Virus record (IMG/VR): IMGVR_UViG_3300028797_000103
Span: 87,685 to 151,684 of that record
DNA from: a virus
Lineage: Duplodnaviria; Heunggongvirae; Uroviricota; Caudoviricetes
DNA: 64,000 nt
Direction: 5' to 3' (one strand)
Notes under the pieces: model-generated
Told to the model about the DNA's origin: nothing
Databases searched by the model: none
What the model saw: the letters and a program-made list of their open reading frames with translations, nothing else
Part shown: piece after piece, positions 34,642 to 51,617 of the stretch
Layout of the letters: each line of letters begins with the position of its first letter
Numbering within the stretch: the first letter of the stretch is position 1
Translations under genes and position numbers: made by a program

Positions 34642-34714
34642 CGGGGTGTAGCTCAGTTGGTAGAGTACGTGGTTTGGGACCATGGGGTCGCAGGTTCGAG
34701 CCCTGTCACCCCGA
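34642..34714 (+). tRNA. tRNA-Pro(TGG)
   Basis: Hand-folded cloverleaf. Acceptor CGGGGTG/CACCCCG and anticodon loop TTTGGGA. Confidence 0.7.
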
Positions 34715-34938
34715 CAAAGCATAGAGAGGTCAGAAAGATTCTTCGCATCGAGTTGAGGTTAACTTTAAACTCATTTTGCGACGTTTGGACTATTCGCTAA
34801 GCGTTTGTCGGTTACGAAAAAACAGAATCAGGTATGGTATAGGATGTAGGGGAAATACGAAATCCGTCCCCGAACCAAGGTGAGTTCCTGCTGAATATGA
34901 AGGATCGTGTAGACAGGAACGAGTATCTGTGCTTTAAT

Positions 34939-35023
34939 GGGGAGGCTGCTCAGATGGCGGATGGGCGCCGGACTGTAAATCCGGTACAAGGAAACACAGT
35001 GGGTTCGAATCCCACCCTCCCCA
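34939..35023 (+). tRNA. tRNA-Tyr(GTA), long variable arm; D-arm atypical
   Basis: Acceptor GGGGAGG/CCTCCCC, anticodon stem CCGGA/TCCGG with loop CTGTAAA, and T-arm GTGGGTTCGAATCCCAC. Confidence 0.55.
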
Positions 35024-35264
35024 CTTGCGACTTGGTGAAAAATGTGCCTGTAAAAAGTCTAATCAGTGTAGTATGTGAGGCTAGCATATGATGGTTTAGC
35101 TGGGTCCTTTAGTATGAAATCCTGATGGTGCGGCCGCAACTGACGGAAAGTAAAAAACAGGTTTGGAGTCATCACGCCCCGTATCATAGTGGGGTATTTA
35201 CGTGGAAGTCGTAGGTCGCTACCATTACGAGACTTAGGTCTTGATAAAAACAAACTAAACAAAA

Positions 35265-35510
35265 ATGAATAGCACCAACAAAGAAACTTTGAAGGAGTTT
35301 GGTAAAGCAGCGCTTCTCATAATTTTGGGTCTCGTTGTAATCATCACTTCAGCCGGTGTTTGGAACGGTGTTGCTTCACACACAATCGATTCATTCTACG
35401 GTTGGGTAGCAGGTCTTAACTTAGTTGCCGAGGGCTTCGGAATCTGGAGTCTTTACAAATGGCTGTTCAAAAAGAAAGTCGAAGACAAGGAGAAGAAGGA
35501 TGGGAACTGA
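35265..35510 (+). CDS. small membrane protein
   Basis: 81 aa with two hydrophobic helices, embedded in the tRNA region. Confidence 0.35.
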   Translation: MNSTNKETLKEFGKAALLIILGLVVIITSAGVWNGVASHTIDSFYGWVAGLNLVAEGFGIWSLYKWLFKKKVEDKEKKDGN

Positions 35511-35587
35511 TGCCTAAAGAACAAAATCGGTTAATCTCGACTGTTGTCGAGCTTCGGGATTTATGACAGGGTCCTTAACCGATAAAT

Positions 35588-35666
35588 GCGGACGTATCGC
35601 CACTGTCTTATACACAGTCATTAACAGCGTAATTGGGGTATGGGAGTTCGAGTCTCTCCGTCCGTA
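35588..35666 (+). tRNA. tRNA-like element with anticodon-like hairpin ACTGT-CTTATAC-ACAGT (TAT) but no canonical D-arm
   Basis: Acceptor GCGGACG/CGTCCGT and T-arm GGGAGTTCGAGTCTCTC. Possibly degenerate. Confidence 0.3.
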
Positions 35667-35673
35667 CTAATAT

Positions 35674-35761
35674 CGCGGGTTAGAGAAGTTGGTCATCTCG
35701 CCGGTCTCATAAGCCGGAACTGGACAAAATCTGGTCGGGGGTTCGAATCCTTCACCCGCTA
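35674..35761 (+). tRNA. tRNA-Met(CAT)-like with ~14-nt insertion in variable region
   Basis: The anticodon arm CCGGT-CTCATAA-GCCGG is identical to the tRNA at 42693. D-arm GAGA/TCTC. The variable region is unusually long. Confidence 0.45.
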
Positions 35762-36748
35762 CAAAACAAATCGGTATCCGTCTGGTCGGAAAAGTAAGGT
35801 GAGGTTGGAAGAGTCCTCGCAAAACGTCGATCCGTACGCCTGAAAAAACAAAACAGCACTACCGGTTAGACTTATAGAGAGGTGAAATGATATATCCTCC
35901 GATGTAGCCGAATCACTCTGGGATTGGAAGACAACAGAGCGGCGAACTTCCAGCGAGCAGTGCTCGCCTCGACGTAGTGTCGATATTGCTAGACAGGTCT
36001 TCTCACAAGATGCTCGAAGTGTTATTTATTGGGAGAGAGAGCCCCAAGAAGTCCAAAGGGAACGCGTTTAACTTCAGAACGCAGAGGACCGATGCAAGAC
36101 AGTCACGAAGCGATAACTTTTCACGAGAGTGGCAAATCACAACAAAAATTTTTCTGGTCAAGTTCTATGGGAAAAGTAAAGCCCGTGACGATGCCACAGT
36201 TGATCGGTGTTCGTTCTACCGGATACAGGAACGTTCGTAGCGGATGTACCGTTACGTTGACAGATTAGACAATCAATTGCTGGATACGGGATACGCAGAA
36301 AGAGGAAGACCGCTCGTCATAATGACGGGAATTTCTTTACGGTGGTTATACTTTTACACCTTTTTCGATCTTCTTGCGTTGTGATTTTTTTATGATTAAT
36401 GTTGATTTAAAAATATATGCAGGATTAGCCTCATGGCGAACTTGCGCAAAAACGGTTTACGCCGACCTTAAAGCGCGTCGTGGAGATATGCGTCAATATC
36501 GGTGGCACGGTGCAAGACCACGGATGTACAGCCGCAACAAAGCACTAAGGGAGAGGTAACGTTACTCCTTAAAACTATATTTTTGGAGTAGGCATGTGAA
36601 CGCCGAGGGACCAAGTTTTGAAACGTTAATAGAAACTGGGGAACGGTGTCTGTGGCAAATCGTGAAGGAAGTGAGGGTGCAAATCCCCTACCACATTTAT
36701 TTGTGGTGTCAATAGTAGCGTTTTACACAGATACAAAAATCACCAAAT

Positions 36749-36820
36749 GGGGCGGTAGCTCAGTGGTAGAGCACTGGACTGAAAATCCAGGTGTCGGCAG
36801 TTCAACTCTGCCCCGCCCCA
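36749..36820 (+). tRNA. tRNA-Phe(GAA)
   Basis: GGGGCGG...CTGGA-CTGAAAA-TCCAG...TTCAACT...CCGCCCC A. Confidence 0.8.
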
Positions 36821-37302
36821 CAAAGTCTTGATTTTACACAAACCGAAAGGGTCGGTCACTGTGTTGACATCTTGTGACAATGAGCGCTACCAAGTATAAA
36901 ATTGCCGTGACGTGCACTCATGTGAAATGGTATAGTAGGAGCAATGGTAAGTCCGGTGCCTCAATATCTCTTAAAGATGCTGTCGGTTCGAAACGGCGGC
37001 GGAGTGGCTAGAAAGACGGAACCCACCTTGAGAGGTGCAAATCTAAGGTAAGCCTGCAAGAATAATCAAGACATCGGTACAGCTTTATCCCGAACAGTAG
37101 TAGGGTCCGGTTGGGCGTGAGTTCGAATCTGCAAGCGGCGAAGTGTAACTCTTCAACGCGATGGTTTTCCAAAAACCGGGTATAGCTTAGGGGTTGTGTA
37201 CAGACTCCGTTCAGTTATGATTGAATAACCAAAGCGAGGTGTCGCAGGAAGTCGCATCGGGGAGTGAAGTTGCTATTCTCCCCTTTTTTAGAAATTTGGA
37301 TC

Positions 37303-37375
37303 GACCTCGTAGCTCAGTTGGTAGAGCACGACACTTTTAATGTCGGGGTCACGGGTTCGAGCCCCGTCGGGGTCA
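37303..37375 (+). tRNA. tRNA-Lys(TTT)
   Basis: GACCTCG TA GCTC...CGACA-CTTTTAA-TGTCG...TTCGAGC...CGGGGTC A. Confidence 0.8.
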
Positions 37376-37463
37376 CAGCAATTGTCGCAGTCAGAAAATG
37401 TACAAGGAACATGCTTGCTTAACAGCAGATACAATAATGGTGTTCTGGAGATTGTGACCTTTG

Positions 37464-37536
37464 CTCTCTTAGCTCAGTTGGTAGAGCACGACACTCTTAA
37501 TGTTGGGGTCCAGGGTTCGAGCCCCTGAGGGAGCAC
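37464..37536 (+). tRNA. tRNA-Lys(CTT)
   Basis: GCTCTCT TA GCTC...CGACA-CTCTTAA-TGTTG...TTCGAGC...AGGGAGC A. Confidence 0.8.
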
Positions 37537-38115
37537 GAGGTGTAAGTTTCATCGGGTTGGCGCACGCAGGCGAATTCCTGCGCATACGAAAAGAAAGCGA
37601 ACTCGGTCTAATCCATTGAGAGAATGGTAATATGAATGTCCAATAGCTCAGAGGAAGAGCAGCGGGACCACCGTTTGTCGGGATTTCGAAATTCCCTTGG
37701 GCATCAACACCTATGCGAACACATAAGTTTAGGCGGGCTGGCATTGCGGGTTGCAAACCCTTTGTCGGTTTATGTCGCGTTGAACGATCGGGGATAGTCA
37801 ACGATTCCAAACTGGATGAAAGCTGTTTAATACGGTACCTAAAACTTCAGCTTAGCGTTTAAGTGGATAGTTGCAAAAGTTGCCTCTGACACAGAGCGAA
37901 GAAGTGGGTTCGACTCCCGCACGCGATACAAAATAGCATTTGCAAAAGACGTCGTGCATCTAAAAGCAAGCGATACGCCAAAGTCTACGTACCTTTTGAG
38001 ATGACTACTGCGCAGTTAAAGTCGCTCACCTGTGTGTCGGAACTGGTCTGGGATTGTACCAGAGTTTAAGCTGATGGAAACACTGTATAAGAGATATTGT
38101 TTGTGCTATTATATT

Positions 38116-38187
38116 GGGGCAGTAGCTCAGCGGTAGAGCAGCGGACTGTTAATCCGCTGGTCGTAGGTTCGAATCCTACCTGCCCCG
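38116..38187 (+). tRNA. tRNA-Asn(GTT)
   Basis: GGGGCAG TA GCTC...GCGGA-CTGTTAA-TCCGC...TTCGAAT...CTGCCCC G. Confidence 0.8.
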
Positions 38188-39023
38188 CGAAACTTATTAC
38201 CATATTATCTTTCGGAGAAATGGTTGGATAAAGCTCGCGTGGAAGACGGCAATTGTCCGTAAAAGTTCAGTTAAAGGTTATCTTCCTTCATCAAGACGCT
38301 GAGTGTCGGTCACTCACCCAATCCCACACTGGGAATCCGCAGAATAGGCTTAATTGTGCATCGCTAATATGCGGACGGAATCTTGTAGCACAACATTGGT
38401 TTCGGAGGAAGTTCGAATCTTCCCGTCTTGGCAACAGCAGGCATCGGAAGGAATGCGACGGGATCCCCATTAGAGAGCTGACTGCTCTAGATGGTTCTTA
38501 TTCTAAATGTAGACCTTGAAGCCACGGAGATTGGTAGAAGAATAATGCGAATCTGGCGGTATCTCCACAACGCGTCGTTCGCAAAATGGTTGGGTTTAGT
38601 CGCTGATGTCGCCATAATGTATAAGTCCTGCTGACGTAAAAGTCGTTGATTCCGGCTGACCACTTTGCTGAGTAGGCGTCAAATTGGAGAAGTGATGCTG
38701 AGGGGGCATAGTAAAAGAACCGCGTAGTATGCGAAGAGAAATTCCGTCATTAACTCCAAATATAAGTCGGGGTGGCTAGCAAAGGGAACGGTTCCGGTCC
38801 AATATCATAAAAATCCTTATGAAATCTGAGACAATCACGAGTCGGAATGGGTACAATTTGAAAAAATTGGGTTGCGGAGAAGATAACTCTTCATGCATTT
38901 ACATCGGAAGAACACAGTAGCAAAATTAACCTGAGGTGGGCTCACCCTCTTGAAAAAATAGAGGATAAGCAAGAACAGAGAGTACATAGTTTATTTAAAA
39001 CATCCGATGACCAACATTATAAC

Positions 39024-39098
39024 GTGCCATTAGCTCAGGTAGAAGAGCCGAGGGGCTTTGCCCCACACGTGTCGGCGGTGCAAATCCGTCATGGTGCG
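39024..39098 (+). tRNA. tRNA-like, atypical anticodon arm (possible Lys-TTT-like; C33, 6-bp stem/5-nt loop alternative)
   Basis: Acceptor GTGCCAT/ATGGTGC with a canonical D-arm. The anticodon region is GAGGG-GCTTTGC-CCCAC and the T-loop is TGCAAAT. Confidence 0.3.
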
Positions 39099-39104
39099 TA
39101 TTTC

Positions 39105-39179
39105 GGGAGGTTAGCTCAGTTGGTTTAGAGCATCTGCCTTACAAGCAGAGGGTCACTGGTTCGAATCCAGTACCTCCCA
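39105..39179 (+). tRNA. tRNA-Val(TAC)
   Basis: GGGAGGT TA GCTC...TCTGC-CTTACAA-GCAGA...TTCGAAT...ACCTCCC A. Confidence 0.8.
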
Positions 39180-39507
39180 CTAGAGATACTTGAGGTTCTC
39201 GACAAATGAACAAAGTACACGTTCACCAGAGATAAACACAGGAACTGACGTGGTGTATAAACAGGAAAAGCACGCAAGTAACAACATAGGCGATTTCGAA
39301 TACCCTATGGCTCTACCCAAACGGCGTTGTTTCGCCGTTATAAAAACAACTAATCAATTACTATGAAAAAGAATTATTTCTTTGGGTAGGTTTCTTCGGA
39401 TTCCTCCATTGTTCTTGAGAAAGTGATGCCTCCTTAATGTTTCGTTTTATTTTTACCTTTAATCTTTTACCAAAATCTTTAATCTTAAAACTAAAACGAA
39501 AACAATT

Positions 39508-39837
39508 ATGAAAGCAAATATCTTAAAATTCAAGAACGACATTAAGGCTCTCGTTGAAGAGCAGAAAGTTAACAAACTCAACAGGAAGACCGACAGGCTT
39601 CCGGAAAACTTTGTCCGCACAAAACCAGCATGGCAAGCAGCCGAGGACGCAAAGTCTCTCAAATACACACTTGAATGTGCGTATATGGCTTATGCAATCC
39701 TTCGCGGAAAGGATGATGAATTTCTTTCTAAGATCGATAATGACTGGGAATACATCAAGTCTTGTTATCAAACTAGAAAGTTCGTTGACAAGTATGCGGA
39801 CGAAAATCCAGAATCAGTTGCAGGAGAAGCAGCATAA
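39508..39837 (+). CDS. hypothetical protein
   Basis: 109-aa ORF inside the tRNA array. Confidence 0.4.
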   Translation: MKANILKFKNDIKALVEEQKVNKLNRKTDRLPENFVRTKPAWQAAEDAKSLKYTLECAYMAYAILRGKDDEFLSKIDNDWEYIKSCYQTRKFVDKYADENPESVAGEAA

Positions 39838-40117
39838 TCGGCTTTATATAATAGTCGATAAAAGTCTAGACCCAGTTTATGGGTGCGTTCAAGGCGGTCA
39901 TGCTGCTTGTCAGTTTTTACTGGAACATCCTGACAGTGATTGGAAAAACGATTATTTGATTTATCTGTACGGAGACGTTGAGAAAGTCAGATATAAGTTG
40001 AGTCGCACCGACAAACGATTCTCTGAGTTTAAGGAACCCGATCTCGGTGGCATGTTGACTTCACTTGCTGTGGAGGATGATGGAAGGATGTTCAGGAACT
40101 ATAAATTAGTTTCCTGA
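39799..40117 (+). CDS. PTH2-like (peptidyl-tRNA hydrolase 2 family?) small protein
   Basis: The motif VYGCVQGGHAACQF resembles the PTH2 G-x-AAQC-HAA region. The start is uncertain because the frame is open from 39554 and overlaps the upstream gene. Confidence 0.3.
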
Positions 40118-40165
40118 CGTCTTGTTGTTTAGACCTTTTCCGGCTGTGGGTAACAACCGGATTCT

Positions 40166-40238
40166 GATCCTGTGAGACATTTGGTAGTCTGGCCGTCCCT
40201 AAAACGGTTTTATGCGGGTTCGATTCCTGTCAGGATCA
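40166..40238 (+). tRNA. putative amber-suppressor tRNA, anticodon CTA (C33 atypical)
   Basis: GATCCTG TG AGAC-ATTTGGTA-GTCT G GCCGT-CCCTAAA-ACGGT TTTAT GCGGG-TTCGATT-CCTGT CAGGATC A. Confidence 0.45.
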
Positions 40239-40245
40239 CAATAAA

Positions 40246-40318
40246 GGGAGTATGGTTGAATGGCTACAATGCAGGCTTGTCACGCCTCGTGGTACGGGTT
40301 CGAATCCCGTTATTCCCG
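40246..40318 (+). tRNA. tRNA-Asp(GTC) copy 1 (C27:C43 mismatch)
   Basis: GGGAGTA...CAGGC-TTGTCAC-GCCTC...TTCGAAT...TATTCCC G. Confidence 0.6.
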
Positions 40319-40323
40319 CAATT

Positions 40324-40397
40324 GGTGCAGTAGTTCAGCTGGTTAGAATGCCGGCCTGTCACGCCGGAGGTCGTGGGTTCGAGCCCCATCTGCACCG
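40324..40397 (+). tRNA. tRNA-Asp(GTC) copy 2
   Basis: GGTGCAG TA GTTC...CCGGC-CTGTCAC-GCCGG...TTCGAGC...CTGCACC G. Confidence 0.8.
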
Positions 40398-40677
40398 CGT
40401 TTATCTTTATATCGATTGACGAATACAGAACAGTCGTTGCGCCAAATGAAACGATCAAGAGGCAAAGTAGTATTAAGAACTCTACGAGTTGGTTTAACTC
40501 CAACATCGATATATAAGATATACAAAAGGCGTTGTTGACGAGAGAACGAAGTCCCTCAGGAGATGATATCAAATGCTGGTTAATTGTAAATTCACATTCG
40601 ATGTGAATACCTTAATGGTCAACGAAGGTTTGAATCCTTCCAACGCCTCAAATACCAATTTAAACCAAAATCAATTT

Positions 40678-41139
40678 ATGCGTAAGTTTATTACAATTAT
40701 TCTTGCTGCTGTCACAATGTTGTTTGCAGCATCTTGCACTTCGTGCAACAATGATGTCAAGTTTGGCATCGAGTATGATCTTGCTGTCAACGGCAGCACA
40801 GATGCAGCTGTTTCTGTAGAATTTGTAGGCGGACATTTCTCCGTCGACGGTGCAGCAAAGTTTGACTTTGACTGGACAAATGTTCTAAAGGACGCAAAGT
40901 TCGAATCTGCACAGGCTCTCGCTCTCGACGAAGCTCTTGTATCAAATGACGCAAAGGTCGCCGAAGCTGCTGCTCGCGTTAACGAATGGCTTGAAACTGA
41001 GGTTGCTGTGAAGGATTTCACTGGTCATTACGACATTTATATCAAGGGCTATGTGAAAGAAACTCTAACTGGACTGAAGTTCGAGATTGATCGTCGCATC
41101 ACAAATCTTCCAGAGACTACAGAGGATCAGGCTCAGTAA
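40678..41139 (+). CDS. putative lipoprotein
   Basis: MRKFITIILAAVTMLFAASC is a signal peptide with a lipobox Cys. The start was trimmed from the track ORF 40573. Confidence 0.45.
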   Translation: MRKFITIILAAVTMLFAASCTSCNNDVKFGIEYDLAVNGSTDAAVSVEFVGGHFSVDGAAKFDFDWTNVLKDAKFESAQALALDEALVSNDAKVAEAAARVNEWLETEVAVKDFTGHYDIYIKGYVKETLTGLKFEIDRRITNLPETTEDQAQ

Positions 41140-41254
41140 TTAAGCAAATTCCGGAACGTATGCCGGATCGTAGCTCATATTGACCTCTGGTTTCAAGTCA
41201 ATATCTCTTCAACGTATAAGAGTAACAAGTTAGACCTCTTGGTGAGTTGATAAA

Positions 41255-41326
41255 AGGTCACACGCCCGGTTCGTCTAAAGGTCAGGACACAAGATTTTCA
41301 TTCTTGTAATAGCAGTTCGATTCTGC
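41255..41326 (+). tRNA. tRNA-Glu(TTC)
   Basis: GCCCGGT TC GTCT...CAAGA-TTTTCAT-TCTTG...AGCAG-TTCGATT-CTGCT ACCGGGT A. Confidence 0.7.
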
Positions 41327-41420
41327 TACCGGGTACAACCTTTTTTGATGGAGAACGAGGTATGGTAATCCTCGCAGGGACGCCGTTGCCCCCTGAAGCT
41401 TTGAACCCCATTGAAGCCCA

Positions 41421-42347
41421 TTGTTTTTTGAAAAACAACTAAAATACAATATGAGTAATATCGATATGAAACTTCCGGCATTTAGGAAGCGCCCTCAACC
41501 GACAAAGAGTGAAATATTGAAAATGGATCTTTCTGAATACTTTCAGTTTATAATAGATCCAAAAGCTTTTTCAAGGGCAGTCTACGAAAATATGAAAGAA
41601 TATTACGGAGACTATTTGACTGAAGATGTTGTAAATAAATTCAAGTTGTCACCAAAGATTGACTACGTTCTTGAAAATCTTAACACACACGATTCCGATA
41701 CATTCTTAAGAAAGCTTAAGGAACATTTCCATCAATTTAGAATAATGGAATTCAGAACAACTGACAGAGAAAAAAGATATATAAAACTAACAATATATGA
41801 TTCTGAAGGTGAGAGCGCAGAACATTTTGCAAACAGTAAGCGATTTGTTGATTTCTGCAATTTCTTCGGATACACAATATCTAAAGTGCTTCAGGGAACA
41901 GAAAATTGTGCAGTGAAACTAGAACCTAGATTTGCAGAATCTGCAAACGATTTGGTGTATAATAAATGTTTTGGAAAAATATATCATATAACGTCAAAAT
42001 CCAATGCTGAAAAAATTCTGAAAAGCGGGTTAAGGGTGAGAAGCGGTAAGTATAGGGATTTTCCAAACAGAATATATTTTGTTGCGATACCACCAAAAAA
42101 GCAGAGTATTGAAACTAGAGAGGAGATTGTTGATGCTATAGATTTGTATATTCCATATGCTGAAGTATTAAGCGGATTTTGCATATTAAAAATTGATATT
42201 TATGGAACGAATTTAAACTTTTATATGGATTCAGTTTCAGAAGACGATGCAAAATATATGGATAAAGAGAACGTTGCGGTGTATACATACAACAACATTC
42301 CTCCGAAATTTATATCTGTTGCATACGACAGCACAGAAGACAAATAA
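41421..42347 (+). CDS. hypothetical protein
   Basis: 308-aa ORF. Confidence 0.45.
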   Translation: MFFEKQLKYNMSNIDMKLPAFRKRPQPTKSEILKMDLSEYFQFIIDPKAFSRAVYENMKEYYGDYLTEDVVNKFKLSPKIDYVLENLNTHDSDTFLRKLKEHFHQFRIMEFRTTDREKRYIKLTIYDSEGESAEHFANSKRFVDFCNFFGYTISKVLQGTENCAVKLEPRFAESANDLVYNKCFGKIYHITSKSNAEKILKSGLRVRSGKYRDFPNRIYFVAIPPKKQSIETREEIVDAIDLYIPYAEVLSGFCILKIDIYGTNLNFYMDSVSEDDAKYMDKENVAVYTYNNIPPKFISVAYDSTEDK

Positions 42348-42692
42348 ATCCCTAGTGTACCCAGAGCTAGCGTGGACGTGGCTAGGTCGGATGCGATCAT
42401 CAAGTCGCAGACGAAAGAAACCCCATTGATGTAATGGCAGCATACCTGACGCGAATTCAGGAAGTTCGAGTTCGAATCTCGATGGTTTGGGTTCAAAAAA
42501 AAAAACAACGGAACCTTGCTGGTGCGAAAACTTCCGAAAATTCGGCTCTAACCACCAGAAAAAACCGTGAGGACCAAGGGGCACCAACCAGGAAGGCTGC
42601 ATCTTAGTTGTACATACGATGTAGTTGACGTGCTGGGAGAAGTAGATCCATAGGAGCGGAGAAACGTTGTTTTTTAGAAATTTGCGGCGTGG

Positions 42693-42756
42693 AGCAGAGG
42701 TCAGCTTGCCGGTCTCATAAGCCGGAGGTCGTAGGTTCGAATCCTACCGCACGCAA
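42693..42756 (+). tRNA. tRNA-Met(CAT), initiator-like body
   Basis: The sequence TGCGGCG TG GAGC AGAGGTCA GCTT G CCGGT-CTCATAA-GCCGG AGGTC GTAGG-TTCGAAT-CCTAC is closely collinear with E. coli tRNA-fMet. The 3' acceptor strand CGC(A)CGCA carries a one-nucleotide bulge. Confidence 0.6.
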
Positions 42757-43204
42757 CAAGGAAATGTTTGGAAATCCAACGGGCATTTCAATAGAGCAAA
42801 CAGAACATGATAATGAGTCCTGCTGACGGATAAGGCAAGGTGAAGATATGGGTTCAATGAGGTCGAAACGGAGTATACACGGAGTAGGCAATATATAAAG
42901 CTCGAATATAAGATGGAGGCTTCTAGGGAAGTACCACGTGTAGGGGTGTTCGAATCACCACTCCATCTCCCCTTTCCCGTGATGGGCAATAGTAGCGGGA
43001 ATCTCTGCGGCGAGCCCCAACGTCCCGGCAGAGTCGGTCAGGTTCACACATAACGGCAAAAACGGAAGTTGTCCAACTATCGGCTTATGTTTCGATTAAA
43101 TAGTGGCAATGGATGCAGTCAATAAGACCGTTTATAGTTGTGATTAAAAAGGTAGTTGTAAGCCTGATACAGAGTACCGAAGCGTATCCTAAATCTCTGT
43201 AAAT

Positions 43205-43287
43205 GCGGCAGTGGCGGAATGGTAGACGCGCCAGCTTGAGGGGCTGGTGGGAGCAATCCCGTGGGAGTTCGAGTCTCCCCTGCCGCA
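43205..43287 (+). tRNA. tRNA-Leu(GAG)
   Basis: GCGGCAG TG GCGGAATGGTAGACGCG CCAGC-TTGAGGG-GCTGG with a long variable arm, then GGGAG-TTCGAGT-CTCCC CTGCCGC A. Confidence 0.8.
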
Positions 43288-43464
43288 CTAATTCACGACA
43301 GTATTTGCAGGTTCAAGTCCTGTTCTGAGGCGGATGACGACGAACTGGTATGTAGCTTAATGGTGTTAAATCCCGTGCCAGCCTTTGTTAGGGAGTTGCT
43401 GTTAAGTAAGGTCGGCTGTTGATAAATCTGCTGTCATAGCGCTGTGGCAGTACGTGAATGATAT

Positions 43465-43550
43465 AGGTCGGTCGCCTAGCGGTTGATGGCATCAGTCTCC
43501 AAAACTGACGAGGTTATTCCTCCACGTGGGTTCGAATCCTACCCGGCCTG
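43465..43550 (+). tRNA. type-II (long variable arm, Ser-like body) tRNA with anticodon CCA (Trp codon), discriminator G73
   Basis: AGGTCGG TC GCCTAGCGGTTGATGGC A TCAGT-CTCCAAA-ACTGA with variable stem GAGG/CCTC, then GTGGG-TTCGAAT-CCTAC CCGGCCT G. The anticodon stem has five perfect base pairs. Confidence 0.55.
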
Positions 43551-43700
43551 CTGTTTTTCTTAGACCGCATCCGAAATGTCGACGTCGGAATGAAATTTAA
43601 AAAACAAGAATTTTCCCTGAATGTCGGTTGTATCTGGGAACGTCGGTTCGGGACGTAATATCCAATAGTCGTGACGTATAAGCCGAACAACGACTAGTCT

Positions 43701-43774
43701 GGCCCCTTAGCTCAGTTGGACAGAGCAACAGTCTTCTAAACTGTGGGTCCCGCGTTCGAATCGCGGAGGGGTCA
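43701..43774 (+). tRNA. tRNA-Arg(TCT)
   Basis: GGCCCCT TA GCTC...ACAGT-CTTCTAA-ACTGT...CCGCG-TTCGAAT-CGCGG AGGGGTC A. Confidence 0.8.
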
Positions 43775-43976
43775 CAAATATGAGAGGATGGACAAATGGT
43801 AAAGTCGCCCCCGTTGGTGTGGGGAGGCGCCTAATAAACCTATTCATTAAGAGGATAAACGGTACGTCGCGAGTCCGCCGAATTCTGAATATTATGGTAA
43901 ATAAGCGCAGAGCTGTTTCACTGTCGCGATTTGAAACAGCCGATTGGAGGTTCGAGCCCTTCTCGCTCTCACACAT

Positions 43977-44106
43977 GGTGGTATAGTTTAATGGAGTATG
44001 GCTAGCCGATTAAAGAGCTTCGACAGTATGCAAGTTCCGTTTCCGTACCTTGAGAATGCCTTCCATGGGCAGGAAGGTGATCAACGTTCGATTCGTTGTA
44101 CCACCG
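43977..44106 (+). tRNA. ~130-nt tRNA-like element (matching acceptor ends GGTGGTA/TACCACC and canonical T-arm CAACG-TTCGATT-CGTTG); possibly intron/insert-containing tRNA
   Basis: The terminal acceptor pairing and T-arm are clear. The interior is too long for a standard cloverleaf. Confidence 0.3.
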
Positions 44107-44111
44107 CAAAT

Positions 44112-44183
44112 GCCCCTATAGTGTAATGGATCGCACGAGATGCTACGGACATCTTAGTAGGGGTTCGAATCCTCTTAGGGGTA
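44112..44183 (+). tRNA. tRNA-Arg(ACG)
   Basis: GCCCCTA TA GTGT-AATGGATC-GCAC G AGATG-CTACGGA-CATCT TAGT AGGGG-TTCGAAT-CCTCT TAGGGGT A. Confidence 0.75.
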
Positions 44184-44240
44184 CACAAAGATTCATCTTA
44201 TAAATCCATAGAATAAATAGCATATCAAAATTATGCTTAA

Positions 44241-45887
44241 ATGATGAATTCTGAAATCTTAATAGTGTCGTTGACATCATACCCGAAACGAATACATTGT
44301 GTATATGATGTTTTGATTTCATTGCTAAATCAGACCGTAGACAGGGCTTTATATCATGTTGTGCTTGTTTTATGCTCATCTGAATTTCCGAATGGAATCA
44401 AGGATGTTCCTGAAAATATAAAACATCTTGTCGATTCTGGCGATGTTGAGATAATATGGCATCCAACTAATATAAGGTCTCATAAAAAACTTATCCCTAC
44501 ATTGAAAAAATATCCAAACGATCCTATACTTGTTGTGGATGATGACTCTATAAGGGATCCGAAATGGATAGAAGTTTTCTTGAACGATCATAAAAAATAT
44601 CCAAATGACATCATAGGAGGAAATTTTGCTTGGTTCTTTGGAAGCGGACTTGAACTTTCTCGGTTATCATCAAGAAAGCGCAAATGCGGTTCTTATATGA
44701 ACGGAATAGCCGGAATGGTTTTAAACTTTGCTAAGCCAGCAAACGGAGACGGTGGGTGTTTATATCCAGCTGGAACATTTACAGATTCCAGATTCTTTGA
44801 TGAAAACTTATTCATGAAGCTTTCTCCAACGTCGGATGAATCGTGGCAGTTTTGTTTCAATATTATAGAGAACAGAACTTTTCGTCAGACCAGTGTAGTT
44901 TTTGATGCCAGTGAACGATTTATAGAAGGGACGCAGGAAATGCCAACGGCATTACACAGAGTAAACAACTACACAGATATAAACAAAAGATTGTTTTCGG
45001 AGTTTCCAGAATTCAAATCAAATCTACTGAAAAGACAAAGAAAAATAGTAGTGTCTTTGACAACATATGGAAACAGACTAAAAAGCGGAGCTGTTGACAA
45101 AACAATACAAAGCATATTGAATCAGAGTATAAAACCAAGTAAAATTGTTTTGAACATAGATTCAGGTGATGAGGTATATTTCTCTGATTGGCTCAAAGAT
45201 AAAATAAAACATGGTGTCGTTGAGTTAATATCAACGAAAGATGTATTCAAGCCTCACAAAAAATATTTTTATGTGATGCAGAAATACAGGGACTATGCGA
45301 TAATAACTTTTGATGACGATCAAGTCTATTCAAAGGATGCTATAAAGGAATTGTTTGAATCTTATTTAAAACATCCAGATTGCGTTTCAGCAAGACGAGT
45401 TCATCTGATGAAGAAAGGTATAAACGGAAAAATTTCTTCATATTCAAATTGGACGAAAGAATACACCGGAATGGTTGATGTTCCGTCTGATGCTTTGTTT
45501 GCTACAGGCGTTGGTGGTGTATTATATCCACCAGACATATTAGGTATAAACGATGACAATATAAAAGAAATCGAAAAATACTTAAACGTGGATGACATTT
45601 ATCTTAAAGTCCTCGAACAAAGAAAAGGAATAAAGGTGGTGAAATGTAAAACGGGGAATTTATATGAATCATCTATCGTTGATAAAGTTACGCAAATGAA
45701 TGCTTTGCAAAATAGAAATGTTAGAAACAATGAAAACGATCTTTATCTTGGAGAGTTGGTGGTTGATAACGTTTCTGACGTTTGTTCAAATGTATCATCT
45801 GTAATATCTAAGAGGTGCGCATCTTATTGGAGAACTAAAATTTCTGAGCCGGTTGGAACACGCACAGCAAAATTTACCAGAAGATGA
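44241..45887 (+). CDS. tandem-domain glycosyltransferase-like protein
   Basis: Two internal repeats each begin I(L/V)VSLT(S/T)Y(P/G)(K/N)R and carry a DDD/DXD-like motif (ILVVDDDS; ITFDDDQ). Confidence 0.4.
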   Translation: MMNSEILIVSLTSYPKRIHCVYDVLISLLNQTVDRALYHVVLVLCSSEFPNGIKDVPENIKHLVDSGDVEIIWHPTNIRSHKKLIPTLKKYPNDPILVVDDDSIRDPKWIEVFLNDHKKYPNDIIGGNFAWFFGSGLELSRLSSRKRKCGSYMNGIAGMVLNFAKPANGDGGCLYPAGTFTDSRFFDENLFMKLSPTSDESWQFCFNIIENRTFRQTSVVFDASERFIEGTQEMPTALHRVNNYTDINKRLFSEFPEFKSNLLKRQRKIVVSLTTYGNRLKSGAVDKTIQSILNQSIKPSKIVLNIDSGDEVYFSDWLKDKIKHGVVELISTKDVFKPHKKYFYVMQKYRDYAIITFDDDQVYSKDAIKELFESYLKHPDCVSARRVHLMKKGINGKISSYSNWTKEYTGMVDVPSDALFATGVGGVLYPPDILGINDDNIKEIEKYLNVDDIYLKVLEQRKGIKVVKCKTGNLYESSIVDKVTQMNALQNRNVRNNENDLYLGELVVDNVSDVCSNVSSVISKRCASYWRTKISEPVGTRTAKFTRR

Positions 45888-45909
45888 TTTCAAATAATTA
45901 AAAAATTCT

Positions 45910-45922
45910 GTATATTTGCAAA
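45910..45922 (+). promoter_or_regulatory. conserved promoter box gTATATTTGcaaa
   Basis: Located 8 nt upstream of tRNA-Ser. Confidence 0.55.
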
Positions 45923-45929
45923 ACATATT

Positions 45930-46017
45930 GGAGGGTTGGCAGAGTGGTCTATCGCGTCGGTCTTGAAAACCGAAGATCTTCACGGGTCCGGGGGTTCGAA
46001 TCCCTCACTCTCCGCCA
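45930..46017 (+). tRNA. tRNA-Ser(TGA) with genomically encoded 3' CCA
   Basis: GGAGGGT TG GCAGAGTGGTCTATCGC G TCGGT-CTTGAAA-ACCGA with a long variable arm, then GGGGG-TTCGAAT-CCCTC ACTCTCC G CCA. Confidence 0.75.
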
Positions 46018-46585
46018 TTAAATTTGAGCACGTGTCGATGACATCGCTGGGTGTACAGACGAGAAGGACAACTCTTAAGGTAACGGGTGTGTTAAACCAG
46101 CCCGCGAGTGCTCTTTTCAAATCAATCTAGAACTCCGAGGAAACTTCACAAGCATTAAGTTTGCCTCTGTGATGCCAAGTTCGAAATTGATGAGAAAAAT
46201 ACATCAACGTTATGGTGGTGGGATTGGAAGCGTCCATCCTTAATGAGTGACTGAGCACCGGATCTATTAACGCCTTTCGGAATCGTCACGTTGATGCAGA
46301 TGAGATAAAACTCTGCAAAGCTTATATCTGTGTGGATATATCGACAAAAACAAGGAATGCTTTGCGGTACGGAAAAACGAGGTGTCACATAAACCTTTCG
46401 TAAGAATCATCTGTTTTGCGCATCATCGACGTGAGCAAACGTGCAGAAAGAAACGCAACTTAGTCGGATAAATGCAATAAGAAACTTTATGTTCGAACTA
46501 ATAAGACTTCCTGAAGTGAAAAGCTAATTGTTTTATTAGTTGTATTTGTCTTTGGCGTAAAAGCACGCCGTACGTTAGATGTTTT

Positions 46586-46658
46586 GCGGGATTAGCTCAG
46601 TTGGCAGAGCGTCTGCTTGCCATGCAGAAGGTCGAGAGTTCGAATCTCTTATCCCGCT
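46586..46658 (+). tRNA. tRNA-Gly(GCC)
   Basis: GCGGGAT TA GCTC...TCTGC-TTGCCAT-GCAGA...TTCGAAT...ATCCCGC T. Confidence 0.8.
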
Positions 46659-46712
46659 CAAGTAAGGGTGCAACAGAGCTGGGACACTGGTTGTATCCCG
46701 AAAGTCCCCCAA

Positions 46713-46785
46713 GCGGAACTAGCTCAGTTGGTAGAGCGGCGGCTTCCCAAGCCGCAGGTCACGAGTTCGAACCTCGCGTTCCGCT
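46713..46785 (+). tRNA. tRNA-Gly(CCC)
   Basis: GCGGAAC TA GCTC...GCGGC-TTCCCAA-GCCGC...TTCGAAC...GTTCCGC T. Confidence 0.8.
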
Positions 46786-46862
46786 CAGATTTTTACGGAT
46801 TTATTTGTTTTATTGGAAAATTCTTCATACCTTTGCAAAAGAAACAAATAAATTATAAAGAT

Positions 46863-47255
46863 ATGAACGATTGGCATAACAAAATTATGAAATTGGACCT
46901 CACCAAATGGGTTGTTACGAAGTTTTATCACTACGCTTCGATTTGTCAAGACATTTTTGCGGAATATGATGAAGTTTGGAACAACAAACCTGTTGGTGAT
47001 CCATACATAAAAGAGTTGTATATTCATTTTTTGTCTATAGCAAATCTTTATTATAAAGAATACACCGGAAGGAAGTACAGCGACATTCGTGATAATAAGA
47101 CCACAATAGAAATCACGAATGTGGAAACTGGGGAAAAGCTTTACATCACTTCCAAAGATGGTAGATTCCTTATAGGAAGGAGTGTGTGGAGTGAGTTCGG
47201 AATTGTTACAAATTTTGGAGTTTGCCAATATGAGTCAAAGATAGATAAAAAATAA
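46863..47255 (+). CDS. hypothetical protein
   Basis: Track ORF 46617..47255 was trimmed to the first ATG after the two tRNA-Gly genes. Confidence 0.4.
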   Translation: MNDWHNKIMKLDLTKWVVTKFYHYASICQDIFAEYDEVWNNKPVGDPYIKELYIHFLSIANLYYKEYTGRKYSDIRDNKTTIEITNVETGEKLYITSKDGRFLIGRSVWSEFGIVTNFGVCQYESKIDKK

Positions 47256-47259
47256 AGAT

Positions 47260-47331
47260 GCGGGAGTAACTCAGTGGTAGAGCGTCAGCCTTCCAAGCTG
47301 AAAGTCGCGGGTTCGAATCCCGTCTCCCGCT
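47260..47331 (+). tRNA. tRNA-Gly(TCC)
   Basis: GCGGGAG TA ACTC...TCAGC-CTTCCAA-GCTGA...TTCGAAT...CTCCCGC T. Confidence 0.8.
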
Positions 47332-47341
47332 CCATTCACAA

Positions 47342-47459
47342 ACAGAAATGGTGAAATTGGTAACCACAGTGGACCAACCCAATATTCCTACTCATGGGGT
47401 AACCCACGGCGAAGCGCAGTAGGTTGTACGTAGCTTGTCGGTTCGAGTCCGGCTTTCTG
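47342..47459 (+). tRNA. ~118-nt tRNA-like element (acceptor ACAGAAA/TTTCTGT, T-arm GTCGG-TTCGAGT-CCGGC) with oversized interior
   Basis: The terminal helix and T-arm are canonical, with a ~40-nt excess between the D-arm region and T-arm. Confidence 0.3.
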
Positions 47460-47478
47460 TATGTGATATTGATTTAAT

Positions 47479-47931
47479 ATGAAAAGGATAGTTTCATTTA
47501 TTTTAATTGATATCGCTGCAATATTGTCTTTCGGTTGTATAAAAGCTGAAACAGACAACCAATGCTTTAAGGTTGGAAACTTTAATGAAGTGATAGAAAT
47601 AAAAGTAGACGATATCACATCAATAGAATATCTTGTTTCATTTAACTTTAATCAAAGATATGTGAAATATCAATGTTGTAAACAGGAAATAACTGTTATA
47701 CAAGAAAGTCCGAAAGAATTTGAAACAATAATTATCTATCCTGTGACAAGAAGAGTAAAAACCTTGCTCATAAATGAGATAACGTTTACAAGAAATTCAT
47801 TTTTATATAACTTAAAAGAGTGGGACAATCTAAGAAGCAACGGAGAAGATTATTTCTGCATATATAATAATAGGGATGCAGTTTGTTCATTTGAACTTCT
47901 TGATGAGATAATTGAACATTGTAACGAATAA
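47479..47931 (+). CDS. secreted hypothetical protein (signal peptide)
   Basis: MKRIVSFILIDIAAILSFGC. Confidence 0.4.
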   Translation: MKRIVSFILIDIAAILSFGCIKAETDNQCFKVGNFNEVIEIKVDDITSIEYLVSFNFNQRYVKYQCCKQEITVIQESPKEFETIIIYPVTRRVKTLLINEITFTRNSFLYNLKEWDNLRSNGEDYFCIYNNRDAVCSFELLDEIIEHCNE

Positions 47932-48084
47932 ACATAAATCGTGAGCACGTTGTGTGCAGAGAGGAGACGTCCCACCACAACGGTCACCGCGATGAAGATG
48001 CGGCTCAAGCTTTAGTCTAGACGATAGAGCCTCGGTCAAAGCCCGACGCAGCCTTGGGGAGAAGCGATAAAGCCTCCCTCGTAT

Positions 48085-48157
48085 GGGGGTATAGCTCAGT
48101 TGGTAGAGCATCTGATTTGCATTCAGAAGGTCGCCGGTTCGAACCCGACTACCTCCA
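48085..48157 (+). tRNA. tRNA-Ala(TGC)
   Basis: GGGGGTA TA GCTC...TCTGA-TTTGCAT-TCAGA...TTCGAAC...TACCTCC A. Confidence 0.75.
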
Positions 48158-48163
48158 CAATCC

Positions 48164-48237
48164 GCTCTCATCTTACTAATGGCTTAGGTGGCCAGCCTCT
48201 CACGCTGGAGATATGGGTTCGAGTCCCGTTGGGAGTA
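48164..48237 (+). tRNA. tRNA-Glu(CTC)-like, weak D-arm
   Basis: Acceptor GCTCTCA/TGGGAGT, anticodon arm CCAGC-CTCTCAC-GCTGG and T-arm ATGGG-TTCGAGT-CCCGT. Confidence 0.4.
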
Positions 48238-48247
48238 CAACCGAATT

Positions 48248-48328
48248 GCGGGTGTGGCGGAATGGTAGACGCGTCAGACTTAGGATCTGGTGTCGCAAGG
48301 CGTATGGGTTCGAGTCCCTTCACCCGCA
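48248..48328 (+). tRNA. tRNA-Leu(TAG)
   Basis: GCGGGTG TG GCGGAATGGTAGACGCG TCAGA-CTTAGGA-TCTGG with a long variable arm, then ATGGG-TTCGAGT-CCCTT CACCCGC A. Confidence 0.8.
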
Positions 48329-48523
48329 CGAATAAATATTATGAACACCGAGGGGAAAGAGATACTGCTTACACAGACTCACCGTAAGCACTCTGGAATT
48401 CGATTTATTCGTAGGTGTGGACGTCGGAAGGGTGAGCCCGCCGTTCTTAGGTTGTCCTGTGTCGCCAGGATCGCGTAGGTGTTTTTTATAAGGCGTATGA
48501 TCACTTTATAATTCACCGTCATC

Positions 48524-48594
48524 GCCCGATTAGTTCAACGGTAGAACAGGACCTTCGTAACGTTCAGATGTTGGTTCGATTCCGACATCGGGCT
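48524..48594 (+). tRNA. tRNA-Thr(CGT)
   Basis: GCCCGAT TA GTTC AACGGTA GAAC A GGACC-TTCGTAA-CGTTC AGAT GTTGG-TTCGATT-CCGAC ATCGGGC T. The anticodon stem has one mismatch. Confidence 0.55.
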
Positions 48595-48610
48595 CTTTAA
48601 GATTATAGAT

Positions 48611-48682
48611 TGCGCTGTAGCTCAGAGGCAGAGCAGGAGATTCATATCCTCCAGGTCGGCATTTCGAAATTGCCCAGCGCAA
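48611..48682 (+). tRNA. tRNA with CAT anticodon (elongator Met or Ile2/lysidine-type)
   Basis: TGCGCTG TA GCTC AGAGGCA GAGC A GGAGA-TTCATAT-CCTCC AGGTC GGCAT-TTCGAAA-TTGCC CAGCGCA A. Confidence 0.6.
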
Positions 48683-49224
48683 CAAATAAAATACAAATTT
48701 AATTTTCATGAAAACAAGAGAAATTGATGAATAATAATTTGGGGACGATATAGAATTTGACTCAAGTTGTCGAACATAATAAGCACGTCGTGCGCCGGTC
48801 ATTTAGCACGTTAATCTCGATGATCAAGAAATAGCTGACAACAGCAACTACAGACTCGCTGCTTAATCAACCGTGTTGGTTAACTTAATTCATCGGAGCC
48901 AAGGCAGCTTCGGAACGAGTGCTTCAGCAGAAGTTTTCTGTCTTCGGTATATTCTGCAACACGAAGCATCATCATTAACCGGAGAGCAGCATCGAAACCC
49001 TTCGTATCGATGTTCGCTAAATCGAAGGAAGGCTGTTCAGGTTTTGTTTCTCTTTTTCTGCCAGCAAATTATAAGAGAAAATAAACGTGTAGAAAGTTGT
49101 GTAAGAGATTTGAACACGGCGGGGCGGTTCCGCCCGTCTCCACAAATTTTGGTTCGTTTTGTCACTTTTGTTAAGTTTTTTGAAAATTTTTGCAAAAATA
49201 CTTTTTTATTTCAAATAAATACAG

Positions 49225-49237
49225 TACATTTGCAACA
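49225..49237 (+). promoter_or_regulatory. promoter box variant gTACATTTGcaac
   Basis: Followed by tcaaactgaaacgg, which also follows the box at 49338. Confidence 0.4.
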
Positions 49238-49337
49238 CCAAACTGAAACGGAAACGTTTCTTAGGTGACAAAGTTCATTGAAATGCAAAAATATTGAAAA
49301 TTTTTCGAAATTTATTTTGAAGTTTCAAAAATTATCC

Positions 49338-49350
49338 GTATATTTGCAAT
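49338..49350 (+). promoter_or_regulatory. conserved promoter box gTATATTTGcaat
   Basis: Located upstream of a ~0.9-kb non-coding stretch. Confidence 0.5.
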
Positions 49351-49354
49351 GTCA

Positions 49355-50220: not shown

Positions 50221-50248
50221 AGACCGCTCAATCGAGCGGTCTTTTTTC
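50221..50248. terminator. rho-independent terminator (bidirectional)
   Basis: agaccgctc-aatc-gagcggtct followed by TTTTTT. Confidence 0.7.
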
Positions 50249-50273
50249 GTTTATATACGTTTGTAAAGTTTTA

Positions 50274-51362: not shown

Positions 51363-51460
51363 ATACTAATTTAACATTTTTATATTTATTTGAAAAATAC
51401 CGGTCTAAAACAATTTTGCGTGTTACCGTCAGATATATTTTTTATTCTGAATAAAAAGTA

Positions 51461-51473
51461 GTATATTTGCAAA
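51461..51473 (+). promoter_or_regulatory. conserved promoter box gTATATTTGcaaa
   Basis: Located upstream of the tRNA at 51618. Confidence 0.5.
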
Positions 51474-51617
51474 GCGATAAATATAGTATATCTCCCAAAA
51501 GGATATTGCGAGAGAGTGGACAATTCCATCTGTATCCAATTAAATACAGGATAGTGAGTATGTAGCTACGAAACAAAATGAACCTCGCACTCGCGGAATA
51601 TTTGAGGGGGATGCTCC

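Follow-up and report, generated by a model that had tools for sequence, protein, structure and literature searches.

Why would a phage that still ends genes with TAG carry a tRNA that reads TAG? The question is raised by a 64,000-nucleotide stretch of a Caudoviricetes phage genome (IMG/VR record IMGVR_UViG_3300028797_000103, positions 87,685 to 151,684), here called the window, in which a putative amber-suppressor tRNA gene lies at 40166-40238 on the plus strand. A previous reading made from the letters alone, the sequence-only reading, had described a well-formed cloverleaf with anticodon CTA and an atypical C at position 33, in a phage not fully recoded for TAG. It expected the suppressor to produce readthrough of specific genes, proposed a genome-wide survey of stop codons and pointed to crAss-like phages as an analogy. 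We found that this tRNA gene is intact, real, conserved and under selection. We also found that the most informative part of the locus, a conserved gene just 5' of the tRNA that encodes a putative peptidyl-tRNA hydrolase of the PTH2 type, had been overlooked by the earlier reader.

The tRNA was located by ARAGORN at 40166-40239 (+), with anticodon cta at position 34; the label "Pyl" that came with it is given automatically by the program to any CUA tRNA. Rfam model RF00005 matched 40166-40238 over the full model (1-71) with 51.4 bits against a gathering score of 29 (E-value 1.8e-8 in a 28 kb search and 2e-10 in a local search), and in this alignment all four stems were formed and no non-canonical pairs were flagged. 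The stems are GATCCTG/CAGGATC (acceptor), AGAC/GTCT (D), GCCGT/ACGGT (anticodon, with one G-U) and GCGGG/CCTGT (T, with two G-U), and the cloverleaf is the minimum-free-energy fold of the bare sequence. All the stems and the anticodon listed in the sequence-only reading were correct, with ARAGORN, Rfam and the folding calculation in agreement. The anticodon loop CCCTAAA (CCCUAAA in the tRNA) has seven nucleotides, C32, C33, the anticodon C34-U35-A36, A37 and A38, with a purine at 37. The bases of the tertiary interactions, U8, A14, G18G19, G53-T54-T55-C56, A58 and C61, are all kept, and the sole conserved base of this kind to have changed is the U-turn base U33, replaced by C. The C at position 33 was borne out by both the sequence and the RF00005 alignment. 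The discriminator is A73, and CCA is not encoded, with CAA standing 3' of the discriminator. Among the tRNAs of the surrounding array, the Rfam score of the suppressor falls in the lower third.

Selection on the tRNA was seen by comparing 21 suppressor tRNAs from phages related through the neighbouring gene, whose cloverleaf positions were aligned by hand. Canonical pairs occupied 421 of the 441 stem positions, and two to five pair types were found at all but one of the 21 positions of the stems. CUA was retained in the nearest relatives, loci L310 and L230, and in 14 more members of the clade, while two had UCA and two UUA, with covarying stems. In L310, L230 and remoter relatives the loop was the same CCCUAAA, and all four stems (acceptor, D, anticodon and T) had changed with compensation. 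The exact sequence of the suppressor had no match in IMG/VR. Its best match among the window tRNAs was only 53/74, and the best sense tRNAs among 1303 unique phage tRNAs were 74-77% identical and of mixed amino-acid types. None was a close sense isoacceptor that would point to the origin of the suppressor tRNA or to its charging identity.

The C at position 33 turned out to be a recurrent feature of phage suppressors. It was present in 13 of the 21 hand-aligned suppressors, the two opal (UCA) members among them, along with those of L310 and L230. In a wider count, with loci chosen without regard to the loop sequence and sense tRNAs taken from the same loci, C33 occurred in 17 of 45 unique suppressors (38%) compared to 19 of 544 sense tRNAs (3.5%; odds ratio 16.8, Fisher p 1.4e-11), counts that are not phylogenetically independent. 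In a scan of IMG/VR, CCCTAAA stood at the proper distance from a T-loop in 32 places, and in 18 of these loci ARAGORN called a tRNA(CUA), mostly on contigs of 140-500 kb; the parallel scan with CTCTAAA gave at least 120 places. According to reviews, elongator tRNAs without U33 are exceptional; C33 is named for eukaryotic initiators, and G33 for the CUG-reassigning tRNA of Candida (PMC5041475; PMC11122139). No paper on C33 in phage suppressors was found in the literature searched, the coverage of which was incomplete. The base is therefore atypical, as the sequence-only reading had said, but it gives no ground for doubting the gene. Because C33 is conserved in orthologues while the stems covary, and is enriched in suppressors, it appears to be kept by selection and not to result from decay. 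We infer that C33 tunes rather than destroys the tRNA, as a selected attenuation or recognition feature.

The gene 5' of the tRNA (geneB, 39794-40117, plus strand) is an open reading frame (ORF) of 107 aa, with the same call in the ENA record (L072, 5554-5877). Its TGA stop lies 48 nt 5' of the tRNA; this spacer (40118-40165, plus strand) is 4-130 nt in most of the relatives' loci, and the gene and the tRNA are probably co-transcribed. A scan for promoters and terminators around the cassette gave results at shuffle level, Bacteroidota-type promoters being outside the scan's coverage. By itself, geneB had one PHROG match, phrog_3668 "hydrolase" (E 1.9e-5). A profile of 21 homologues matched the PTH2 chain 2zv3 in the PDB (E 7.6e-8) and five more PTH2 chains, among them 1rzw, 1wn2, 1q7s and 1xty. 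PF01981 was matched by 16 of the 21 family members (best 1.3e-10) and NF003314 by 15 of the 21. An AlphaFold model, made with the homologues from the protein search as alignment, had a pLDDT of 90.3 and a pTM of 0.80, and its ten best PDB matches by Foldseek all belonged to the PTH2 family (TM 0.5-0.7, with 0.70 for 1q7s). In the alignment, the invariant residues Q33, H36, E81-P82-D83 and T89 fall on conserved PTH2 positions of presumed catalytic role, namely the AQxxHA motif, an acidic residue and a Thr. Judged by these profiles and the predicted structure, the product of 39794-40117 is a divergent PTH2-type homologue with the PTH2 alpha/beta fold, and it is predicted to hydrolyse peptidyl-tRNA or blocked aminoacyl-tRNA. 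The family has about 1240 representatives at 50% clustering. Among 185,579 species genomes it was found only in two contigs of metagenome-assembled genomes (MAGs; GTDB), both with a tRNA(CUA) downstream.

Linkage between the hydrolase gene and the suppressor was found from either direction. Loci fetched by the DNA pattern of the tRNA alone contained the PTH2-like protein in 27 of 152 cases, compared to 0 of 71 control loci of similar total length. A profile search of six-frame translations placed the gene within 1.2 kb of the CUA tRNA in 28 of the 78 pattern-fetched loci with enough flank. Conversely, IMG/VR loci were fetched by the protein profile alone, and the best 80 of 290 relatives were analysed. 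A tRNA(CUA) lay on the same strand within 1 kb downstream in 58 of these 80, usually as the first tRNA; two had a tRNA(UCA) at that place, seven had a tRNA(UUA) about 0.7 kb upstream, and nine had no suppressor within 6 kb. Dereplicating the loci at 90% left 46, and in 34 of these a suppressor (CUA, UCA or UUA) was the nearest tRNA, compared to 10.4 expected if every tRNA of a locus were equally likely to be the nearest. The pair of hydrolase and suppressor was also present in ENA and Logan assemblies, as well as in the two GTDB MAG contigs. The adjacency of the PTH2-like gene and the suppressor tRNA is specific, reciprocal and widespread.

Many relatives of the hydrolase gene have a further feature, an amber codon that acts as a gate near the start of the ORF. 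In 18 of 82 distinct homologues, the ORF consists of ATG, one to eight codons, TAG, three to nine codons and then the conserved first strand, with no Met after the TAG. Since the TAG interrupts the leader and no later Met is available, the protein of a gated ORF would be made only when the suppressor works. Neither TAA nor TGA was found in this arrangement in any of the 82. Most gated copies belong to one subfamily, which has diverged to about 30% identity with the TAG kept, and at least three further gated cases fall within the window gene's own subfamily; the ORFs of L104 and L174 are examples of gated homologues. A gate codon is absent from the window copy, as it is from the two nearest relatives. 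At gated loci, in-frame TAG occurs in 77 of 179 ORFs, or 3.8 per 1000 codons. Because these loci are generally TAG-recoded, a TAG inside the gated gene is unsurprising in itself; the notable part of the gate is the recurrent position of the TAG in a short leader. The aligned homologue positions were too few and scattered for a call on the amino acid encoded by TAG, and a local recoding score was mostly uninformative on the relatives' loci due to the low coding density of tRNA-array regions.

Other stop codons were seen in the same family. Some homologues have a TAG inside the hydrolase domain, and two have a TGA at the codon of the invariant Trp50 (L256 near 6132 and L267 near 2482). On sequence, this is direct evidence that L256 and L267 read TGA as Trp; L267 carries both UCA and CUA suppressors. 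In L280-L286, on IMG/VR contigs of 24-554 kb, a tRNA of the ochre type (UUA) precedes the PTH2-like gene by about 0.7 kb, and coding coverage increased by 0.31-0.44 with TAG as sense compared to about 0 for TGA, despite the UUA tRNA. At L322 (14000-20327), a contig with the PTH2-like gene and tRNA(CUA) runs into bacterial-looking genes (TIR domain, Big_2, Rce1-like, LGT, DUF1846) and may be an integrated element or a chimeric assembly.

What would the suppressor act on in the window phage? The readable sequence came to 83 kb, the 64-kb window plus about 10 kb beyond each end, which is about a quarter of a genome of about 329 kb, and an ORF of at least 100 aa was counted as a gene. The 74 genes in this sequence end in TAA (63), TGA (9) and TAG (2), and no in-frame TAG was found in any of them (about 24,000 codons, estimated from ORF lengths). 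The rarity of TAG as a stop is not compositional, because TAG makes up 17.7% of the off-frame stop triplets (binomial p 8e-5 for the deficit in stop use); TGA is depleted too. On this part of the genome, the proposed survey of stop codons thus found TAG strongly depleted as a stop and absent in frame. Within the window (64 of 329 kb), ORF coverage increased by 0.05 when TAG was treated as sense and by 0.05 in the control with TGA as sense. The claim that the phage is not fully TAG-recoded was therefore upheld for the window, which shows no TAG recoding, as the gain from TAG is no larger than that of the TGA control.

The two genes named in the sequence-only reading do end in TAG, and they are the only such genes among the window ORFs of at least 100 aa. 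One TAG (20341..20343, minus strand) ends gene 20341-21093, which has a weak Stealth_CR2 match, and readthrough would add 13 residues up to the next stop. The other (28513..28515, plus strand) ends gene 27931-28515, which has no family match, and readthrough would add 16 residues up to a TAA. Readthrough of specific genes thus has two possible targets, but extensions of 13 and 16 residues are hardly a programme. No release-factor domain, release factor 2 included, was found among the scanned ORFs or the precomputed Pfam lists of the flanks (83 kb). No capsid, portal, terminase or lysis genes were found in the readable 83 kb, in which the family-assigned genes are all non-structural, and late genes could therefore be recoded elsewhere. 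The readable 83 kb uses the standard code, with TAG stops almost purged. Since the hydrolase is ungated here and TAG is nearly purged from 83 kb of standard code, the genome is most likely in a state with a suppressor but with no change, or no detectable change, of the code. The gain of a suppressor tRNA by a relative of recoded phages that itself uses the standard code has been reported (10.1101/2021.08.26.457843).

The explanation that we favour, to which we give about an even chance, is that a functional amber suppressor and a PTH2-like hydrolase form a conserved two-part cassette in a standard-code phage and that low-level readthrough of rare TAG stops results. The suppressor is most likely working, and probably attenuated. 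The tRNA would come from the transcript of the hydrolase gene, or from one that starts just after it, as their spacing and strand suggest. It would then be processed, receive CCA from a host enzyme, since CCA is not encoded, and be charged by a host synthetase; charging and the decoding of UAG in vivo are predicted from the gene's sequence. The tRNA would decode UAG against competing release factor 1, and C33 in place of the near-universal U33 should weaken the U-turn of the anticodon loop. The PTH2-like enzyme would cleave the ester bond of the peptidyl-tRNA or blocked aminoacyl-tRNA that piles up at contested stops, and would recycle tRNA alongside the phage's tmRNA, a role suggested by homology and linkage only. 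In this phage, the direct effect would be low-level readthrough of the rare TAG stops, with no gate on the hydrolase.

Several points weigh against this explanation. Searched alone, geneB had no match in Pfam, PF01981 included. The Lys of the PTH2 GKGK segment, presumably important for PTH2 catalysis, is not conserved in the PTH2-like family. The locus counts behind the linkage are not phylogenetically independent, and C33 may make the suppressor tRNA a poor decoder. A suppressor would have little visible work, as a quarter of the genome holds only two TAG-ended genes and no TAG in frame. About 245 kb, with all the recognisable structural genes, lies beyond the readable part and may be recoded there. 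Also, PTH2 genes are already known in jumbo-phage tRNA arrays, where another role, rescue after tRNA cleavage, was proposed (PMC7824862).

A more far-reaching proposal, which we regard as possible but tentative, is that the hydrolase and the suppressor are a dedicated, previously undescribed phage code-switch module, with the gate as a feedback loop, C33 as a selected mark and the window phage as the ungated form. In many lineages, the gate codon would be a stop read by the adjoining tRNA, so that the enzyme acts on peptidyl- or aminoacyl-tRNA only once suppression is on. In another form of the loop, translation would be coupled to transcription: ribosomes stopping early at the gate would leave the transcript open to Rho, and more suppressor would lead to more tRNA transcript. 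C33 would then be a selected attenuator or recognition mark, analogous to the G33 of Candida. Another possible explanation, also one that we hold to be somewhat doubtful, is that the late (structural and lysis) genes are TAG-recoded outside the window and that the code switch cannot do without this tRNA, as in recoded gut phages such as the Lak and crAss-like ones. Recoded phages keep their replication genes in the standard code and have their recoded stops concentrated in structural and lysis genes (10.1101/2021.08.26.457843). This would fit a window whose family-assigned genes, like those of its flanks, are all non-structural, in which TAG stops are nearly purged and whose cassette-bearing relatives are clearly recoded. 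However, recoded relatives with the cassette have about 3.8 TAG per 1000 codons even in their tRNA arrays, whereas the 74 genes here have none in frame. The PTH2-like ORF is ungated both here and in the two nearest relatives, TAG is absent from the possible virion or surface proteins of 2514 and 1341 aa, and the 83 kb showed no release-factor gene.

The tRNA and the PTH2-like gene could also belong, with the array, the tmRNA and the RNA ligases, to a general kit for translation rescue or counter-defence, for which a code change is not the purpose. After a host attack on tRNAs or release factors, the suppressor would move stop-stalled ribosomes on to tmRNA rescue and PTH2 would free the tRNAs. 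We consider this unlikely, since it does not explain why the hydrolase stands beside the suppressor in particular, among 10-30 tRNAs, or why the hydrolase ORF bears a stop codon read by the neighbouring tRNA. It does agree with the full-length tmRNA (86.9 bits), two RNA ligases, HAD_SAK_2 RNA-repair domain and metallophosphatases of the window, and with partner tRNAs that can be amber, opal or ochre. A role in ribosome rescue was proposed for phage PTH2 by Iyer et al. (PMC7824862), and the tRNA arrays of mycobacteriophages have been noted to contain PTH2, RF-1 and tmRNA (PMC5966550). A decaying, non-functional copy, in which C33 breaks the U-turn and the CUA is an accident in a redundant member of the array, is disfavoured and very improbable. 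U33 is nearly invariant in elongator tRNAs (PMC5041475; PMC11122139), the Rfam score is among the lower ones of the array, and no gene in the 83 kb needs the tRNA. Nevertheless, the loop is identical in L310, L230 and remoter relatives while all stems change with compensation, C33 is 17-fold enriched in suppressors, the other tertiary bases are intact, and the place beside the PTH2-like gene is conserved. The pyrrolysine tRNA of the ARAGORN label has a negligible chance of being correct, as the CUA anticodon and the automatic label are all that speak for it. tRNA(Pyl) lacks G18G19 and the T-loop consensus and has a long anticodon stem and a 3-nt variable loop, whereas the tRNA found here has a canonical body (G18G19, T54-T55-C56, a 5-bp anticodon stem and a 5-nt variable loop), and no scanned ORF contained a domain for Pyl synthesis or PylRS. 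Both the pyrrolysine and the pseudogene readings were rejected on the canonical body and on the conserved loop with covarying stems.

Parts of the favoured two-part cassette have been described before, namely suppressor tRNAs in large phages including jumbo phages, the gain of a suppressor in a standard-code relative, and PTH2 in jumbo-phage tRNA arrays. The pairing of hydrolase and suppressor and the stop-codon gate in the hydrolase ORF were not found in the literature searched, the coverage of which was incomplete. The TAG-recoded gut phages (Lak, crAss-like and the clades of Borges et al., 10.1101/2021.08.26.457843; jumbo-phage survey PMC13037316) share with the window phage a phage tRNA(CUA) in the tRNA array of a large phage, and they are likewise metagenome-assembled with a strong preference for TAA stops. 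In contrast to them, the window phage has no in-frame TAG in 83 kb, C33 instead of U33 and no release factor 2 gene seen. Its suppressor also differs from theirs in the acceptor and discriminator (G1-C72, A73), which are unlike those of bacterial tRNA-Gln. Closer in state is the Agate-clade standard-code relative of Borges et al., which shares the standard code, the depletion of the matching stop (here TAG, 2 of 74) and a cognate suppressor; the gain of a suppressor in such a relative was proposed as a step before recoding (10.1101/2021.08.26.457843). In that example the suppressor reads TGA and the phage has about 80 kb or more, whereas the window has an amber suppressor in a 329-kb phage with a protein partner unmentioned in that paper.

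The PTH2 (archaeo-eukaryotic peptidyl-tRNA hydrolase) proteins described in jumbo phages and mycobacteriophage tRNA arrays (PMC7824862; PMC5966550) share with this locus a small PTH2-fold protein, a tRNA array, tmRNA and RNA-repair genes. In those papers PTH2 is a general rescue factor and suppressor tRNAs are unmentioned, whereas the window gene adjoins a suppressor, is often gated in relatives and, unlike the described phage PTH2, is by itself too divergent for a Pfam match. The Candida tRNA-Ser(CAG) with G33 (cited in PMC5041475) is likewise a codon-reassigning tRNA without the near-invariant U33, although it is a case of eukaryotic sense-codon reassignment with G33 and not C33. By analogy, the two may be functional parallels in which attenuated or altered decoding makes ambiguity tolerable. 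Theta (HDV-like) ribozymes beside phage suppressor tRNAs (PMC10879173) are another conserved element coupled to a suppressor for which control of a code switch was proposed, but there a ribozyme adjoins the tRNA and here an upstream protein gene. Rfam detected no ribozyme between 34 and 62 kb of the window, and the next gene starts 7 nt 3' of the tRNA.

The source of the window was traced through two of its proteins, which map to ENA contig ERZ27257207 k141_3285839 (328,867 bp), one near its end and the other near its start. The contig ends overlap by about 141 bases at window 46010-46150, as computed from locus coordinates. Since the proteins map to both ends and the ends overlap, the point at which the circular assembly closes falls within the window. 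The end overlap of the contig suggests a circular or terminally redundant genome, and we take the source to be a circular jumbo phage of about 329 kb. In sample 3300033463 its genome is divided among JGI contigs, of which there are at least two (126 and 67 kb). The source samples are SRR10393135 and SRR10393136, and a relative is contig ERZ27257205 k141_2056606 (310,214 bp). Genomes of crAss-like phages are about 100 kb. The phage is not crAss-like, contrary to the analogy of the sequence-only reading, as judged from the length and circularity of this contig and from megablast, which found no close phage relatives in GenBank but only tRNA fragments.

The tRNA array around the cassette extends over 34642..61487 (plus strand) and contains 31 ARAGORN tRNAs and one found by Rfam only, all on the plus strand with small ORFs between them, for a total of 32 tRNAs plus a tmRNA. 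The tmRNA (48741-49145, plus strand) matched the full model of Rfam RF00023 and was not reported by ARAGORN; its tag frame, read by eye, is GCT GAC AAC AGC AAC TAC AGA CTC GCT GCT TAA, or ADNSNYRLAA. The relative L318 also has a tmRNA in its array (8238-8646). Three tRNAs are long (86-89 nt) with apparent long variable arms, at 43465-43551, 51618-51703 and 35674-35762 (plus strand), and have Trp (CCA), Cys (GCA) and Met (CAT) anticodons. Long variable arms in bacteria are normally confined to Leu, Ser and Tyr tRNAs, and the tRNA-Trp of L310 has a normal 72 nt. These long-arm tRNAs could contain inserts or mini-introns or reflect odd identity switches. A tRNA-Gln(ttg) called by ARAGORN at 39023-39099 (plus strand) was not recovered by Rfam, while L310 has a tRNA-Gln(ctg); the window may be without a convincing tRNA-Gln. 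The Rfam-only tRNA (42684-42755, plus strand; 54 bits), missed by ARAGORN, has the loop CTCATAA, anticodon CAT and a poorly paired acceptor stem.

Overlapping the start of the PTH2-like ORF by 44 nt is an ORF of 109 aa (geneA, 39508..39837, plus strand), which is an ENA gene call with no Pfam or PHROG match. Its tblastn matches beside geneB were in closer relatives only, namely L310-L313 (88-89%), L230 (63%), L107/L269, L261, L150 and L279. Neighbouring genes were also tried as anchors. Gene 41421-42347 gave no relatives in IMG/VR, and gene 40573-41139 gave one distant locus, L077, in which a tRNA-Gln(UUG) without sequence similarity to the suppressor stands at the matching place. Relatives anchored on PolB (L001 and L002) did not include the suppressor region and were used as a control set.

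The genes assigned to families in the window and about 10 kb on each side include an IMPDH-like enzyme, DNA methylases, DnaJ, an AAA ATPase, RNA ligases, a radical SAM enzyme, dUTPase and ClpP, as well as a family B DNA polymerase, helicases, a sigma factor, glycosyltransferases and very large repeat proteins. An RNA-repair set can be recognised, made up of two RNA ligases (RNA_ligase, RNA_lig_T4_1), a HAD_SAK_2 "Swiss Army Knife RNA repair" domain and two metallophosphatases. Its members lie at window 24825-25739, 29586-30026, 2461-3195 and 57866-58477 and at L314 14780-15883, and it is consistent with the tRNA-repair theme described for jumbo phages. No in-frame TAG is present in the very large ORFs (2514 and 1341 aa) or in a pair of paralogues that have YadA-head-like repeats (window 5326-12870, 3324-5300 and 17378-18994, and L316 3317-7342, all on the minus strand). 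The 2514-aa protein has weak LRR and Laminin_G_3 matches, and the very large ORFs may encode virion or host-surface proteins. A DUF3575 protein is encoded at 51736-52890 (plus strand), and the close relative L310 (17675-20324) has a TonB-dependent-receptor-like protein with a CarboxypepD_reg domain. Proteins of both kinds are typical of Bacteroidota, which hints at a Bacteroidota host.

For this genome alone, the result is modest, as it adds one more jumbo phage with an amber suppressor and the standard code in all readable sequence. Its wider bearing is on the switch by which phages of standard-code hosts come to read TAG as an amino acid. Fewer than half of the recoded phages have a suppressor tRNA, and the protein factors linked with such tRNAs are few. 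The hydrolase would give a concrete handle on this switch, being a small protein that stands beside a suppressor in about three quarters of its loci, amber, opal and ochre alike, and whose own translation often appears suppression-dependent. The enzyme of 107 residues can be expressed and assayed, and the two-gene cassette can be moved into a reporter strain. The enrichment of C33 bears on the decoding efficiency that a suppressor needs or can afford, and C33 may bias tRNA annotation tools against such genes. The pair of hydrolase and suppressor recurs in hundreds of phages and may be an unnoticed part of phage code change.

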